This document shows positions 6,550 through 32,000 of a stretch of 32,000 nucleotides of DNA, piece after piece; the stretch's first letter is position 1, and the number at the start of each line of letters is the position of its first letter. The stretch covers positions 82,604-114,603 of the forward strand of contig JAUWKS010000005.1 in assembly GCA_030614005.1 (NCBI GenBank), written 5' to 3'. The stretch comes from Candidatus Heimdallarchaeota archaeon. Its GTDB lineage: Archaea; Asgardarchaeota; Heimdallarchaeia; JABLTI01. The position numbers were made by a program, and so were the translations under genes. The notes below the pieces were generated by a model. That model did no database searches. It was given only the letters and a program-made list of their open reading frames with translations, and was not told the DNA's origin.

Positions 6550-6597
6550 AAAAAGGGTTATTAAATTGACTAATCCTTTTTTTACTTTCTTTTTTCC
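6550..6597 (+). terminator. Hairpin plus T-tract terminator, possibly bidirectional
   Basis: 11-bp stem AAAAAGGGTTA (6550-60) / TAATCCTTTTT (6571-81) followed by further T runs. Confidence 0.6.
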
Positions 6598-6678
6598 ACC
6601 AAAAGCAATCTTAAAAAAAGTTAATCCTCCCATTATATTAGCTTAATTCCACATTTATGGTATTTCTGCAGATTTCAT

Positions 6679-6832
6679 TCACTCTCTGTTTGAAAATCCT
6701 AAAATTCTATTACAATGTGGACAAGTATACATAAACACACTATATCTAGTATGTTTTATTAATGGAGTTTCCACATGTTTTTCCCAATAAGGACAAAGCA
6801 GGTGGTTTTTGTTCTGATAGTTTCTTAGACAT
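6679..6832 (-). pseudogene. Disrupted small zinc-finger protein (~50 aa)
   Basis: ATG at 6832 reads MSKKLSEQ; removing one A from the A5 run continues as NHLLCPYWEKHVETPLIKHTRYSVFMYTCPHCNRILGFSNRE*; first CxxC reads CPYW, second CPHC is intact. Confidence 0.45.
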
Positions 6833-6913
6833 ATTTATCAAGAAATTGACTATTTTCTAATTGCATTGTTGATTTGCAGTAATTAAAGGTTTTTTACAAA
6901 ACAACAAACAATT

Positions 6914-8113
6914 TTACTTCTGTAAATCTTCAATAGAATCTATTGTAATTTTCTGTAAACATATAGGGCATTTACCTTGTGTTTTTAACCATTCGAAGAG
7001 ATGGGTAAGATGGGCTTTGGATTCACAGAGAGGACATTGACCAATTTCTTGATTTTGTGAAATAGGTAATTTGCAAACAGAACATTTGAGGGTTTCCTTG
7101 TTGCAATTTGAGCAAATTTTCTGAGTTTTAGAAATCGGGCTCATGCAATAATAACATACAAGTCCATTTCTTGCTTCTTTAAAGTTAAATATATTATCAA
7201 TTTCAGCTCTAAATTGAGAATCGCCCAATAACATATTTTGAAGATCTTTCTCTTGTCGTCCTCTTTCGTTTATGATTAAATGTCTCGAGCCACTCTTACT
7301 ATCAAATCGAGCTATCCAAAATAAATGGTAAAAAGTATCAACATTTTCAAATTTGGTTATTTTGAAATCCTTTTTAATTTTCAAAGCATTTCTCATACCA
7401 AGAAACCATTGCCTTTTGAATTTCTCCACAATGCTATTCTGTATAGCAATCTTACCATTTGCTTCTTTTCTTAATTTTCTCGTTTGGTTTTTGAAATCAG
7501 TAGCTTGTTGTCTGTATTCTTTGTATTCAGGCGATGATTTATTAGAGGAGTACATTTCAGCATTTTTTTGAGCAATGTCTGCTTTTTGTTGAAGAGTGTC
7601 AGCTTCTGTAAATAATGGTTGCACTTCTTCTCTAGTTTTTTCTAAATCCAATACTAACTCATCATGACGGTGAATATATATTTCAAATAAGCTAGTATAA
7701 ACAATGCTAGGATCTAAAAACTGAATCACGGGTACATTAATAGTATACGAACCTAAAAGGTGCAAAAGCCTTTTTTCCTCTTTTGAATAAATCAATGTTA
7801 ATGCTTTTCTTCCTCCTTTATCCAGTAAAAGTTTCTGAACAAAAGGAAATGAAAATTTACCCAACATAAAATTACTTCTTGTATGAATTTTAGTTGAAGT
7901 ATCAATAGGAGAATTCTGTTTTGTGTAGCTAATCTCAAATTGCCGTACTGGCCATAACACTGGTTTGAGATAGGTTAATTTTTCAATTATTTTTCTCTGT
8001 AAGAGCCCCCCTTTCTTCCGATGCCTTTCGACTATTTCTTTGATTTTACTTTTCTCTAAATTATTCTGAATAACGCGATAACTCACACGGGAAGGCTCCT
8101 GGAGAAAATTCAT
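6914..8113 (-). CDS. Coiled-coil protein with C-terminal double zinc ribbon and RING-like (C4H2C2) domain
   Basis: CYYC-x10-CSNC then CSVC-x12-CPLC-x4-H-x2-H-LFEW-x6-CPIC; charged helical central segment. Confidence 0.8.
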   Translation of the reverse strand: MNFLQEPSRVSYRVIQNNLEKSKIKEIVERHRKKGGLLQRKIIEKLTYLKPVLWPVRQFEISYTKQNSPIDTSTKIHTRSNFMLGKFSFPFVQKLLLDKGGRKALTLIYSKEEKRLLHLLGSYTINVPVIQFLDPSIVYTSLFEIYIHRHDELVLDLEKTREEVQPLFTEADTLQQKADIAQKNAEMYSSNKSSPEYKEYRQQATDFKNQTRKLRKEANGKIAIQNSIVEKFKRQWFLGMRNALKIKKDFKITKFENVDTFYHLFWIARFDSKSGSRHLIINERGRQEKDLQNMLLGDSQFRAEIDNIFNFKEARNGLVCYYCMSPISKTQKICSNCNKETLKCSVCKLPISQNQEIGQCPLCESKAHLTHLFEWLKTQGKCPICLQKITIDSIEDLQK

Positions 8114-26861: not shown

Positions 26862-27959
26862 TTGACTGATAAAAAACGATTTTCTTTACTATGTCCCCAT
26901 TGTAAGGATAATATTGCCTTTGAATTAAGTGTTGAAGATTTAGAAAATAGTTATTCCGGAGAAACAGCAAAAATAACTCTCGGTTCTCATGGAAACCCTG
27001 CACATACAGTAGATGTTTATATTGATCGTGATGGTCTCGTTCGTTCTGCATTTGCGAATTTTGCTTCCGTTGAATCCAAGGTTTCACTTCAGAATACCTA
27101 TATTACAGATGCTACCAGTGATCTCAATCCTCAAGAAGGACGAGCAATCGGAGTCAAAGTTGTTCCTTATACCGTTACTATTGATGATAGTCCACCAAAA
27201 AAATACAATGAAGAAATATTTTTTTCAGAAGTCTATGATGGCCTAAAAGCAGATAAAAGAGTTAAAAGTCAGCCTGTTTCTGTTGAGTTATTTTTAGAAG
27301 CTTTCAAAACGTCACCACGAGATAAACCAATAATTACTCTCACTGTTAGTCAAAAATACAGTGAAGGATATGATAACGCTATAAAGGCTAAGAAAATTCT
27401 TGCAAAGGAAGAACCCTCTTTTACCAGAAATATCCACATCATCGATTCGAAAACAACTGGTCCAATGATGAAATTAATGATAAACAAAGCCCTCGAAATG
27501 GATGAGGGAGGACAAAACCTCGATGATATAATCGAATATTTGAATTGGATGCGTGAAAAACATTTGACCTATATTTATGTTGATTCATTGAGTGCTCTCA
27601 GAAAAAGTGAACGAGTTGGTAGAGTAACATCATTTTTCGGTAATTTATTAGGTTTAAAACCTGTCATTATTGAAAATGAAAATAATAATGGTGAATTAAA
27701 ACCTTTCAAAACTGTTCGAAGCAAGAAAGCTGCTATCCAAGAAATTGTCAAAGCAATTAGAAAACAATTTGGTTACGTAGAACTTGTTGGAGTAATTATT
27801 TATGGTATCATTATCGATGATGCATTAGAGATGCAAGAGTTGCTAAAAAAAGATTCAAAAACTGAAGACAATGATTTCACCATGGATTTCATTGGTACAG
27901 GTGTAGCAATGCATCTAAGCTATGATGTGCTTGGTATCTCTCTCTATCCCAAATTGTGA
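26862..27959 (+). CDS. DegV/FakB-family fatty-acid-binding protein with N-terminal zinc-ribbon-like extension
   Basis: ITDATSDL, KSQPVS, IIDSKT, VDSLSALRKSERVG, LLGLKPVI, GVAMHL; N-terminal CPHC...SHGNPAH...VYIDRDGLVR. Confidence 0.85.
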   Translation: MTDKKRFSLLCPHCKDNIAFELSVEDLENSYSGETAKITLGSHGNPAHTVDVYIDRDGLVRSAFANFASVESKVSLQNTYITDATSDLNPQEGRAIGVKVVPYTVTIDDSPPKKYNEEIFFSEVYDGLKADKRVKSQPVSVELFLEAFKTSPRDKPIITLTVSQKYSEGYDNAIKAKKILAKEEPSFTRNIHIIDSKTTGPMMKLMINKALEMDEGGQNLDDIIEYLNWMREKHLTYIYVDSLSALRKSERVGRVTSFFGNLLGLKPVIIENENNNGELKPFKTVRSKKAAIQEIVKAIRKQFGYVELVGVIIYGIIIDDALEMQELLKKDSKTEDNDFTMDFIGTGVAMHLSYDVLGISLYPKL

Positions 27960-28521
27960 TTCTTCTTCTTCTTCGTTAATTCTTTCTACTCCTTATGCAA
28001 AATTCTTTTGGGGTGGAACTTTGTTAACTATCTTTGTTACTTTAGTAATCTTTTCGTTTTTCCTTCTCGGTTGGGAAAGGATAAAGTACATTGGTTCACT
28101 AGAATGGTTCATAAGAACTATTACGAATAATATCATTCCAGCACGGAAACAGACTTTTGATTCCACGGTAATATGGTGGCAGAGAGGAGAAAAAGATGTT
28201 GAAAATACCTTCACTAATCCTGATTGGATAGATTTAGTTGATCCTGTTAAAGAAAAAGAAGAAAATAAAGATGAATTTCTTTTAGAACAAAAAGATTCCA
28301 AACTAGCTCTAATACTATCTATTGTTGGTTTAGTTACACTAATCTTCAATGCAGCAAGTATCTTTGGATTATTCGTTACAATTAATGCTCGAAAAATCGA
28401 AGGAAAGAATAAGAAAAACACCGCAGCATTAGTATTATCAATAATTGGTTGTGTTTTTTTTGTTGCATTCTATGCAGTTTGTTTTAGTGTAAAAATTGGT
28501 TCACTTGGTCTCCCCATCTGA
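27960..28521 (+). pseudogene. Probable 3' remnant of a DUF418/DUF1624-like membrane protein gene
   Basis: WGGTLL...WERIKYIGSLEWFIR resembles the DUF418-type G-x-L-E-W C-terminal motif; the frame begins in low-complexity (TCT)n directly after the degV stop; the track start at 27922 lies inside degV. Confidence 0.45.
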
Positions 28522-29959: not shown

Positions 29960-29975
29960 TGAAAATTCCCATCTT

Positions 29976-30356
29976 TCATTTGATTTCTCTTGGTAATTCT
30001 TTCAATTCAAAAGATTCAGGTTTCAATTCTTCTTTAATATATTCCCAAGCAACATGGGGGTCCAAGGATTTTCCACAGAGAAATATATCTAGAGCAGCAA
30101 AACCAAATTCAGGCCAAGTATGCAGAGAAATATGTGTTTCTTTCAGAATGACAACAACACTGCAACCCAAAGGAGAAAATCTATGAACAGATGCTTGAAG
30201 AACGTGTGCTCCTGCTTTTTTTGCTGCTTCTGTTATCAGTGTTAAAATTGCTGTCTCGTTGTTTAAATCTGCTTGACATTTATATAAATCGATTATTAAT
30301 TCATTTACTTTCAAAGGTTCTTTTAATGGATATTTTTTTATTTCTTCTTTGGGCAT
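29976..30356 (-). CDS. speD: S-adenosylmethionine decarboxylase proenzyme (class I, SpeD/SpeH-type) with atypical E-T-H cleavage site
   Basis: IIDLYKC, HRFSPLGCS, LKETHISLHTWPE, ALDIFLCG; 16 nt upstream of bpsA on the same strand. Confidence 0.88.
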   Translation of the reverse strand: MPKEEIKKYPLKEPLKVNELIIDLYKCQADLNNETAILTLITEAAKKAGAHVLQASVHRFSPLGCSVVVILKETHISLHTWPEFGFAALDIFLCGKSLDPHVAWEYIKEELKPESFELKELPREIK

Positions 30357-30528
30357 TAGCTTCTTTCTCCTACTTGTCTAAGTTTGATAAAAATGACAAT
30401 ATTAATGTATGTTTCCTTCGATTATTTTGCTTTCAGAGACAAAAGCATATAAAAAATATAGCTTCTTGTTCTATTATATAATCAGAATAAAGAGATAATA
30501 TATCCAATTAAGGAGATTTGTACTATCT

Positions 30529-31284
30529 ATGAAACCTATTGAAAATGAAATAATAACCTTTGATGAAATTATTTCCACTCAAGAGTTGGCAATGAAATAT
30601 ATTAACGAACAAAAAGCAACTCATGGTTTAGTTTTAACTGCTCAAAAACAAACTGGTGGGCAAGGTCGATTAGAGAGAAGTTGGTCATCTCCTATTGGCG
30701 GTTTGTGGATGACTACAATATATCAGTGCAAACTTCCTTTAGCTCAATTTGAGGGTTTTTCAGTACGCTTAGGCTTGGAATTAATCGAAGATCTCGAGAG
30801 TTCATTTCCATTAGAAATTCAAATTAAATGGCCAAATGATTTGATAATCAATGGGAAAAAAGTTGGTGGGATTTTGATTAACACTAGAATAAAAGAAGAA
30901 TTACTAACAGAACTCGTTATTGGGATTGGCATTAACATAAACAATAAAACAGAAACATTGCCACCGGAAGTAGCATCGATCGCTACCTCGATGAGTGAAA
31001 ATCTAAAAGATAAAATTTCTATTGATTCAGTTCAAGATGTAGTTCTTGTTGCTCAGAATAGACTCTTCAATAAAGTAGTTAGAGATGAAATGGATGATAT
31101 AACCTTAATTTGGGCTAAAAAATCTTTCAGTTTTCAAAAAGAAATTCGAGTAGTTACTCAAGGAGAAACATTAATTGGATTAGAACAAGGAATAACAGAA
31201 AATTGTGAATTAATTCTGAAAACAAAGTCTAATGAAATAAAAACCATCTCTATTGGAGATATAGAATTGATGAGAATAAAATGA
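30529..31284 (+). CDS. birA: Biotin--protein ligase without N-terminal HTH
   Basis: STQ, QTGGQGR...W.SP.GG, IKWPND, KKVGGIL, IGIGINI; AGGAGA RBS at 30511-16. Confidence 0.9.
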   Translation: MKPIENEIITFDEIISTQELAMKYINEQKATHGLVLTAQKQTGGQGRLERSWSSPIGGLWMTTIYQCKLPLAQFEGFSVRLGLELIEDLESSFPLEIQIKWPNDLIINGKKVGGILINTRIKEELLTELVIGIGININNKTETLPPEVASIATSMSENLKDKISIDSVQDVVLVAQNRLFNKVVRDEMDDITLIWAKKSFSFQKEIRVVTQGETLIGLEQGITENCELILKTKSNEIKTISIGDIELMRIK

Positions 31285-31368: not shown

Positions 31369-32000
31369 ATGGTTGAAAAAGAAGATAGTATTAATGATAA
31401 AGCAGAAATTGCAATAAAGAAATTGAAATCACCAGATGTTGTGAAAAGGCAAGAAGGGGCTTGGAATCTTCTAGAGCTAGCAGAAAACGAGAGCGATAAA
31501 ATAAAATTAGCTATACCAGATTTAGTTGCTGTACTTAAAGATGAAGATTGGGCTGTAAGAAAACTTTCGTTACTTGCTTTAGGATACCTAGATGTCAAAG
31601 ATCAAATACCAACAATGATTGATTTTCTTAGAAATGATATTAACTCCGAAGCTCGTGTTGGAGCTGCTCAAGCACTTGGCGAAATGAAAGTTGAAAAAGC
31701 TGTTCCCCACTTAATTCAAGCACTAGATGATTCTGCTTTTATGGTTAGGCGAGCTTCTCTACATTCTCTTGGTTTAATAGGAATTCTTGCAAAAGAAGCA
31801 GTACCAAGAATAATTGAAATTTTAAACCAACCTGAAGATATGGAACTTTTACAAGTTAGAAATATAGCTGCTTGGGTTTTAGGTGAGATTGGAGACAAAT
31901 CCGCTATTGATTCACTCTCAAAAGCTTTAGATAGTGCTGTCTATTCTGAAAGAAAAGTTGAAATTGCTTGTGCGCTAACAAATCTAGAAGATGGTAAAGG
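31369..32000 (+). CDS. HEAT (PBS lyase-like) repeat protein, 3'-partial
   Basis: Open from ATG 31369 to the window end: LKDEDWAVRKLSLLALG, EARVGAAQALGEM, LDDSAFMVRRASLHSLG, VRNIAAWVLGEIG; absent from the track because no stop codon is in the window. Confidence 0.88.
   Translation, partial: MVEKEDSINDKAEIAIKKLKSPDVVKRQEGAWNLLELAENESDKIKLAIPDLVAVLKDEDWAVRKLSLLALGYLDVKDQIPTMIDFLRNDINSEARVGAAQALGEMKVEKAVPHLIQALDDSAFMVRRASLHSLGLIGILAKEAVPRIIEILNQPEDMELLQVRNIAAWVLGEIGDKSAIDSLSKALDSAVYSERKVEIACALTNLEDGK

Follow-up and report, generated by a model that had tools for sequence, protein, structure and literature searches.

Does a decarboxylase built on the plan of the pyruvoyl enzymes need serine to make its cofactor? 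The question is raised by a speD-like gene in a 32,000-nucleotide stretch of DNA from a Candidatus Heimdallarchaeota archaeon (GenBank assembly GCA_030614005.1, contig JAUWKS010000005.1, positions 82,604 to 114,603; hereafter the window), whose predicted product belongs to the S-adenosylmethionine decarboxylase (AdoMetDC) family and carries threonine at the position of the pyruvoyl-precursor serine. The pyruvoyl group comes from an internal serine in all pyruvoyl decarboxylases (Webb et al., 2014, PMC3975893), and pyruvoyl enzymes are textbook cases of protein-derived cofactors, for which the literature cited here names an internal serine always, or a cysteine in two reductases. We found that threonine is fixed throughout a clade of archaeal SpeD proteins linked to one clade of BpsA-type aminopropyltransferases, and we lean slightly towards reading the window protein as a working AdoMetDC of this distinct Thr-type clade, in which the threonine would give a 2-oxobutanoyl cofactor.

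Threonine takes the place of the cofactor-precursor serine

On the minus strand, GAA-ACA-CAT (30140-30132) encodes Glu73-Thr74-His75 within the protein motif VVVILKE-T74-HISLH79TWPE, which is followed by DIFLC94G. The window SpeD matched the Pfam family PF02675, AdoMet_dc (8.3e-35, 119.8 bits, cut-off 25) and TIGR03330, the model for Bacillus-type class 1b AdoMetDC (2.4e-35, 121.3 bits, cut-off 75.65), and a phmmer search against PDB sequences matched it to the AdoMetDC of Thermotoga maritima (1TLU; E 5e-24, about 38% identity, similar length). That alignment pairs Thr74 with Ser63, His79 with His68, Cys94 with Cys83, Ser66 with Ser55 and Asp23 with Glu11. In the T. maritima enzyme, pyruvoyl formation and catalysis are assigned to Ser63, His68 and Cys83 (Li et al., 2023, PMC10407285), and Ser55 is the analogue of human Ser229 (PMC3975893); the equivalents of Ser55, His68 and Cys83 are all present in the window SpeD. 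A first-pass annotation of this DNA had read threonine at codon 74 with the downstream histidine and cysteine retained, and both the translation and the 1TLU alignment bear this out.

An AlphaFold2 (AF2) model of the protein (pLDDT 93.2) likewise had 1TLU as its top PDB match (E 2e-14, TM 0.81/0.88, root-mean-square deviation 0.8 Å), and no solved structure from the Thr clade was found among the PDB sequences searched. Hidden Markov model (HMM) and fold both place the window SpeD in the class 1b AdoMetDC family, and the serine of the Glu-Ser cleavage site is absent, with Thr74 in its place. We do not class the protein as a pyruvoyl enzyme because the serine precursor, the defining feature of such enzymes, is replaced; it is an AdoMetDC homolog that most likely works much like one.

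The threonine is an old character kept by selection

Logan contigs built from the sequencing runs of three separate studies span codon 74 and show no listed difference at it. Each of the 48 close homologs, which share 72-99% identity and come mostly from Heimdallarchaeota or Asgard metagenome-assembled genomes (MAGs), has the motif [VI]ILKETH. An AdoMet_dc gene was found in 159 of the 399 Asgard species genomes scanned. Among the roughly 70 Asgard SpeD proteins that were translated, E-T-H was confined to the window's own Heimdallarchaeial family, where it was present in 10 of 10 genomes (nine of the window's genus and one of a sister genus), and all the others carry serine.

For the AdoMet_dc family as a whole (5530 hits), we read the best 150 representatives at 50% identity: 138 have Glu-Ser, nearly all of the others also have serine, and a single one, P0049, has Glu-Thr. 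P0049, which is 48% identical to the window SpeD, was the entry to a second large Thr subclade, with LILAETH in 81 clusters at 90% identity, which a genome scan assigned to the Bathyarchaeia. That scan recovered about 40 Thr-type genome loci, about 30 of them from Bathyarchaeia and the others from the Heimdallarchaeial family. A scan for the Thr DNA pattern alone hit 19 of the 401 Bathyarchaeia genomes sampled and gave zero control hits. A scan of IMG/VR found no viral Thr-type SpeD, all seven of its hits being Ser-type. Thr74 is present in each of the 165 Thr-clade sequences aligned and is encoded by all four threonine codons over 44 distinct loci (ACC 16, ACA 13, ACT 8, ACG 7), and the ratio of nonsynonymous to synonymous substitution (dN/dS) is 0.03-0.1 in pairwise comparisons of orthologs from the window's family. 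Because of this clade-wide fixation, the use of all four codons and the low dN/dS, we regard the threonine as going far beyond chance and as an old character kept by selection.

These data refute the view that the threonine stems from faulty sequencing or assembly, is a mutation private to this genome or marks a decaying gene, to which we attach practically no probability. A change from TCA to ACA needs only one base, and the first-pass annotation had cautioned that such a lone change sat in a window with several damaged genes. However, the contigs of three studies agree on the codon, over 130 protein clusters and over 40 genomes all have threonine there while its codons turn over synonymously, and dN/dS is low. 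The picture of a damaged window does not hold around this locus either: speD and bpsA, like the genes beside them, are intact open reading frames (ORFs), and long ORFs fill the window densely. Serine in the reads or in close homologs, which would have pointed to an error or private change, was found in neither the contigs nor any close homolog.

Catalytic residues are retained in the Thr clade, with changes around them

To describe what accompanies the threonine, we set 165 Thr-type domains against 217 of the Ser type, using window numbering throughout. Within the Thr clade, conservation is 100% for E73, H75, S/T66, C94, P82 and D23 and 96% for H79. Residues kept at the Ser-type level or above are Glu73, His75, Ser/Thr66, His79, Thr80, Trp81, Pro82 and Glu83, together with Asp90, Phe92, Cys94, Pro62, Gly64 and Arg123. 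One proline, lost in the SpeDA arginine decarboxylases, is invariant among bona fide AdoMetDCs (PMC10407285); P62, P82 and P100, the candidates for it, are all kept in the window SpeD and are 94-100% conserved in the clade.

Six positions distinguish the Thr clade from the Ser-type domains. Position 17 (T. maritima Gly5) is Gly in 92% of Ser-type domains and Ile or Val in 100% of the Thr clade, and position 19 (T. maritima His7) is His in 84% of the former and Gln or Glu in 100% of the latter. Similarly, Phe at position 57 (T. maritima Phe46; 55% of Ser-type domains) gives way to Val or Thr, Gly at position 67 (T. maritima Gly56; 71%) to Val, Ala or Ile, and Thr at position 93 (T. maritima Thr82; 71%) to Ile, Leu or Val, while position 104, which is variable in Ser-type domains, is Trp in 99% of the Thr clade. 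Ser77 rises from 60% in Ser-type domains to 99% in the Thr clade. Judging facing from the alternation of residues along the strands of the model, residues 17, 19, 23 and 25 would share the face of strand 1 that bears the active-site Asp23, and residues 67 and 93 would face away from Ser66 and Cys94, towards the helix carrying Trp104.

Thr-type SpeD and BpsA behave as one evolutionary module

The gene that follows speD encodes a BpsA-like protein, and the two genes are probably co-transcribed, given a spacing (Table 1) whose tightness recurs between speD and bpsA in all orthologous loci. The BpsA-like protein matched PF01861 (2.3e-57, 194.5 bits, cut-off 27), and its residues 10-299 matched BpsA of T. 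kodakarensis (5XNC, 6e-37) with the GDDDFTS and TDPPYT motifs aligned. It comprises an N-terminal winged-helix domain, a catalytic domain (GDDDFTS, TDPP) and a C-terminal Cys-rich tail resembling a zinc ribbon, in which C345, C370 and C373 are conserved in the BpsA clade alignment. This tail (about residues 340-387, CxxG...CPxCG) is conserved in the partner clade and unaligned with solved BpsA structures, and some Bathyarchaeia partners are about 545 rather than about 390 residues long. A complex prediction for BpsA and SpeD scored 0.00, which speaks neither for nor against binding.

BpsA uses decarboxylated AdoMet (dcAdoMet; PMC12979288). Where the flanking DNA was long enough, Thr-type SpeD loci nearly always had a BpsA of one clade as neighbour, in the order speD-bpsA in the Heimdallarchaeial family and bpsA-speD in Bathyarchaeia. 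Other Asgard families have a Ser-type SpeD that adjoins BpsA or is fused to its C-terminus; such fusions are a classic sign that two proteins are functionally linked. These fusions are single ORFs of about 460-500 codons (L045-L048, L053-L056 and L069-L072) with E-S-H, T-S-H or S-S-H at the cleavage site, and we found no paper on BpsA-SpeD fusions in the open-access literature searched.

In an unrooted tree of 198 non-redundant SpeD domains, built with the trait column masked, the 34 Thr-type rows fell into one set (SH-aLRT 96) that also held one Ser-type row, P0067. Because this Ser-type protein pairs with the Thr-type P0062, serine and threonine have been interchanged at least once within this background, and the nesting of P0067 suggests that the two residues are functionally interchangeable at this site. 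P0067 and its sister P0062 are both metagenomic, and P0067 carries the clade signatures Gln19 and Trp104. In the BpsA tree, also unrooted, the partners of Thr-type SpeD make up one side of a branch (SH-aLRT 91). Because the partner BpsAs form one clade, the speD-bpsA pair behaves as a single evolutionary module common to Bathyarchaeia and one Heimdallarchaeial family, and its sharing across two phyla implies horizontal transfer, the direction of which unrooted trees do not give. Synteny, co-phylogeny and fusion in sister lineages thus support a functional tie between Thr-type SpeD and BpsA.

Thr-type SpeD is the sole AdoMetDC gene in most genomes searched

At 90% completeness, the window's genome has a single AdoMet_dc gene and a single BpsA gene, and neither SpeE nor PdaD was found in it; eukaryote-type AdoMetDC (PF01536) was not found there either, in a search for which the control genomes were uninformative. 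Also present are a SpeA-like arginine decarboxylase dependent on pyridoxal phosphate (PLP; 1.8e-102), four agmatinase-family genes, deoxyhypusine synthase (DHS) and TiaS. The SpeA-like enzyme, of 607 residues, falls just below the NCBIfam cut-off and is encoded beside a LysA-like decarboxylase (genome G000, contig C26, L163:4568-6391 and 6585-8027). Its presence rules out that SpeD is an arginine decarboxylase by necessity. This gene content suggests an unusual, BpsA-dependent route to spermidine, in which BpsA, the sole recognisable aminopropyltransferase of the genome, probably supplies a spermidine-like polyamine for DHS.

Thr-type SpeD is the only SpeD in all five single-contig Bathyarchaeota chromosomes, all of which have DHS and three of which lack SpeE, and it stands alone in three of five further Bathyarchaeia genomes, giving sole-copy status in 8 of the 10 Bathyarchaeia genomes searched. 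This count, together with the single AdoMet_dc gene of the window's genome, argues against a regulatory paralog. The first-pass annotation had proposed a natural Thr-type enzyme, or an altered or regulatory paralog, feeding the adjacent BpsA; its core survives, with the threonine fixed and selected and the tie to BpsA supported on three counts, and the paralog part does not.

The two remaining Bathyarchaeota genomes, which have a Gln79 variant (L077 and L078; ETHISIQTWPE), also carry a Ser-type paralog reading IIDKSHIAIHTFNE, without the proline. This paralog resembles an arginine decarboxylase because that proline is lost. The Gln79 Thr-type protein and the Ser-type paralog may form a heteromer or divide labour between them.

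A proposed threonine-derived cofactor and the alternatives to it

In pyruvoyl enzymes, a hydroxyl attacks the preceding carbonyl to yield an intermediate ester, E1cB elimination gives dehydroalanine, and hydrolysis follows (PMC3975893). What we computed comprises the threonine, its conservation under selection throughout the clade, the retained catalytic residues and fold, and a sole-copy gene linked to BpsA; cleavage and the cofactor's identity, like the AdoMet substrate and the pathway, are inferred as follows. The proenzyme would process itself between Glu73 and Thr74: an N-to-O acyl shift would be followed by beta-elimination, tautomerisation and hydrolysis. With threonine as the precursor, the alpha chain's N-terminus would be 2-oxobutanoyl (alpha-ketobutyryl) rather than pyruvoyl, and this group would act as the Schiff-base electron sink when AdoMet is decarboxylated. 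Both halves of this chemistry have precedents elsewhere: threonine carries out N-to-O acyl shifts in the autoprocessing of N-terminal nucleophile (Ntn) hydrolases, and in lanthipeptides such as Pep5 a dehydrobutyrine at the N-terminus is hydrolysed to 2-oxobutyryl. The dcAdoMet, of which Thr-type SpeD would be the only source, would pass to the probably co-transcribed BpsA-type aminopropyltransferase; on the most economical route, the SpeA-like enzyme would turn arginine into agmatine, BpsA would carry out a dcAdoMet-dependent aminopropylation, and an agmatinase-family ureohydrolase would then yield a spermidine-type polyamine for DHS. It is fairly likely that the whole archaeal clade naturally uses a Thr-derived 2-oxobutanoyl group and has co-evolved as a module with its dedicated BpsA, which may perhaps aid activation or channel dcAdoMet.

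Several observations weigh against a threonine-derived cofactor in a working AdoMetDC. The N-terminal G-x-H motif of beta-strand 1 is missing from the window SpeD (V17-N18-E19) and from the whole Thr clade, and G67V, T93I/L/V and W104 are further clade-specific changes; because of these, the active site is not merely a Ser-type site with one added methyl, and its specificity may not be the same. The His79 position is Gln in about 4% of the clade (P0251, P0262, P0263, P0272, L077 and L078), and the divergent P0062 has Phe there, along with His at the Arg123 position. Engineered Ser-to-Thr mutants of phosphatidylserine decarboxylase (PSD; S254T) and of histidine and AdoMet decarboxylases reportedly show slow processing, non-productive cleavage or low activity. 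Finally, the pathway argument leans on absences in MAGs, the window's own genome being 90% complete.

Some of these observations also feed two alternatives. We consider it unlikely that no keto cofactor forms, with the protein either staying uncleaved or being hydrolysed to an N-terminal threonine and acting as something other than a decarboxylase, be it a scaffold or regulator of BpsA or a Thr-nucleophile enzyme. Pyruvoyl itself cannot form from threonine, engineered Ser-to-Thr mutants reportedly fare poorly as a rule, the His79 equivalent is gone from a few clade members, and the tight co-evolution with one BpsA clade could mean a structural partnership; moreover, the ester intermediate of pyruvoyl enzymes can hydrolyse to an inactive chain (PMC3975893). 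However, Cys94, His79, Ser66, Glu73 and His75 are strongly constrained, unlike in pseudoenzymes such as the trypanosomatid prozyme, most of the genomes have no catalytic SpeD that could be regulated or could provide BpsA with dcAdoMet, and the fold differs from that of Ntn hydrolases. The substitutions around the active site bear rather on a second alternative, improbable in our judgement, that a Thr-derived keto-acyl group is made and that, like SpeDA and SpeDC, the protein decarboxylates something other than AdoMet, be it L-arginine, L-ornithine or a further amino acid. AdoMetDC homologs have repeatedly switched to arginine or ornithine (PMC10407285), and the clade has substitutions both on beta-strand 1, where G-x-H becomes I/V-x-Q/E, and elsewhere. 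The N-terminal chain is reportedly what sets arginine versus AdoMet specificity in crenarchaeal enzymes, in work attributed to Giles and Graham from 2008. Set against this, the BpsA partner needs dcAdoMet and these genomes have no other AdoMet_dc gene, a SpeA-like PLP arginine decarboxylase is already there, the prolines typical of AdoMetDC are kept and the central region is canonical save for the Ser-to-Thr change, and sister lineages fuse a Ser-type SpeD to BpsA.

The rise in Ser77 conservation, from 60% to 99%, would fit a true pyruvoyl group made from another serine, with Thr74 merely lying near a shifted cleavage site, yet we give this very little weight: in the model Ser77 lies inside beta-strand 4, outside the strained beta3-beta4 turn where cleavage occurs, the E-x-H frame about position 74 is invariant, and one clade member (L096) has Ala at position 77. 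Productive and hydrolytic cleavage predict different masses for this small protein of 126 residues, so that a new cofactor and a new role of the fold could be told apart with it: with a proenzyme of 14337.6 Da and a beta chain of 8115.5 Da, the alpha chain is computed at 6223.1 Da with 2-oxobutanoyl, 6240.1 Da with the N-terminal threonine of hydrolytic cleavage and 6209.0 Da as the pyruvoyl form of a T74S control, so that the productive and hydrolytic products lie 17 Da apart and the productive product lies 14 Da from the pyruvoyl control.

Relation to known enzymes

The closest known system, the class 1b AdoMetDC of T. maritima (SpeD/SpeH; 1TLU, 1TMI and 3IWB), shares with the window SpeD the fold, the Glu-X-His frame, the HTWPE motif and the Ser55, His68 and Cys83 equivalents, but has Ser63 and G-R-H where the window SpeD has Thr and V-N-E; the clade-specific V67, L93 and W104 further set the window SpeD apart. 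SpeDA (arginine) and SpeDC (ornithine) decarboxylases are likewise divergent class 1b AdoMetDC homologs spread horizontally through archaea and bacteria; unlike the Thr clade they keep the serine, SpeDA lacks the conserved proline and SpeDC has four diagnostic residues (PMC10407285). The Thr clade, in contrast to both, keeps its prolines, has a central motif that is canonical save for the threonine, and is coupled to an enzyme that uses dcAdoMet. The trypanosomatid AdoMetDC prozyme (5TVM) resembles it in having the AdoMetDC fold without a functional cofactor precursor, but the prozyme has lost catalytic residues and is always paired with a catalytic paralog, whereas the Thr clade keeps these residues and mostly has no paralog. 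A prozyme-like dead paralog is ruled out by the conserved catalytic residues and the single AdoMet_dc gene of most genomes.

That the precursor need not be serine is illustrated by PrdA of D-proline reductase and GrdE of glycine reductase, which make pyruvoyl from cysteine (PMC3689656). Cysteine still yields pyruvoyl there, in another fold and for another reaction, whereas threonine would give a group with one extra carbon. The 2-oxobutyryl group of lanthipeptides such as Pep5 is the same group, made from threonine through dehydrobutyrine and hydrolysis, but it is a by-product of leader removal, depends on dedicated dehydratases and has no catalytic cofactor role. An alpha-ketobutyryl group is also the expected product where serine was exchanged for threonine in pyruvoyl enzymes in the laboratory (E. 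coli PSD S254T, prohistidine decarboxylase at Ser82 and human AdoMetDC at Ser68). Those engineered forms are reportedly impaired, whereas here the threonine is natural, fixed, selected and accompanied by co-varying substitutions. The clade is relevant to enzyme engineering because these substitutions appear to have solved in nature the poor processing of Ser-to-Thr mutants.

A natural Thr-derived cofactor of this type was not found in the literature searched, which comprised open-access papers and is no proof of novelty, and no paper on AdoMetDC in Bathyarchaeota or Asgard archaea was found in the same literature. If real, 2-oxobutanoyl would be a cofactor of a kind new among natural enzymes; a threonine fixed in the sole AdoMetDC of many archaea means either a new natural cofactor or an unexpected new role for the AdoMetDC fold. 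The question also bears on how Asgard archaea and Bathyarchaeia make the polyamine for hypusine without SpeE, and on annotation, where Thr-type proteins are now named plain 'adenosylmethionine decarboxylase'.

Features of the locus and neighbouring genes

Table 1. Positions of the features discussed (window coordinates, except for the two paralogs, which are given by locus).
Feature	Position	Strand	Basis or content
speD-like gene; class 1b AdoMetDC-family proenzyme of Thr type, 126 residues	29976-30356	minus	ORF, Pfam PF02675, TIGR03330, AF2 model, dN/dS
Codon 74, ACA, Thr (TGT on plus); pyruvoyl-precursor Ser position	30135-30137	minus	Sequence, 1TLU alignment, contigs
Predicted beta chain, residues 1-73, 8115.5 Da	30138-30356	minus	Includes beta-strand 1 (V17/E19), conserved D23/Y25/C27, Ser66
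Remainder of predicted alpha chain, residues 75-126, and stop codon	29976-30134	minus	His75, His79, Pro82, Cys94, Trp104
His79 codon (T. maritima His68)	30120-30122	minus	
Cys94 codon (T. maritima Cys83)	30075-30077	minus	
Intergenic region between speD and divergent birA-like gene; presumed promoter and ribosome-binding site of the speD-bpsA pair	30357-30528	none	GGAG about 12 nt before ATG, read from sequence
Spacer from speD stop to bpsA start, 16 nt	29960-29975	minus	Coordinates
bpsA-like gene; BpsA-family aminopropyltransferase, 387 residues	28796-29959	minus	PF01861, 5XNC match
Ser-type paralog reading IIDKSHIAIHTFNE	L181:1441-1788	plus	
Ser-type paralog reading IIDKSHIAIHTFNE	L182:678-1022	minus	

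The pair is flanked by genes of other families. A DegV-family protein (26862-27959, plus strand) is extended at its N-terminus by about 80 residues that include a CPHC motif, and its gene overlaps the start of a membrane-protein-like ORF of 199 residues (27922-28521, plus strand) that gave no Pfam match. Divergent from speD, the plus-strand gene at 30529-31284 encodes a BirA-like biotin protein ligase lacking the N-terminal helix-turn-helix domain. It is followed by a gene for what appears from its sequence to be a HEAT-repeat-like protein (31369-31998, plus strand), which runs off the end of the window.

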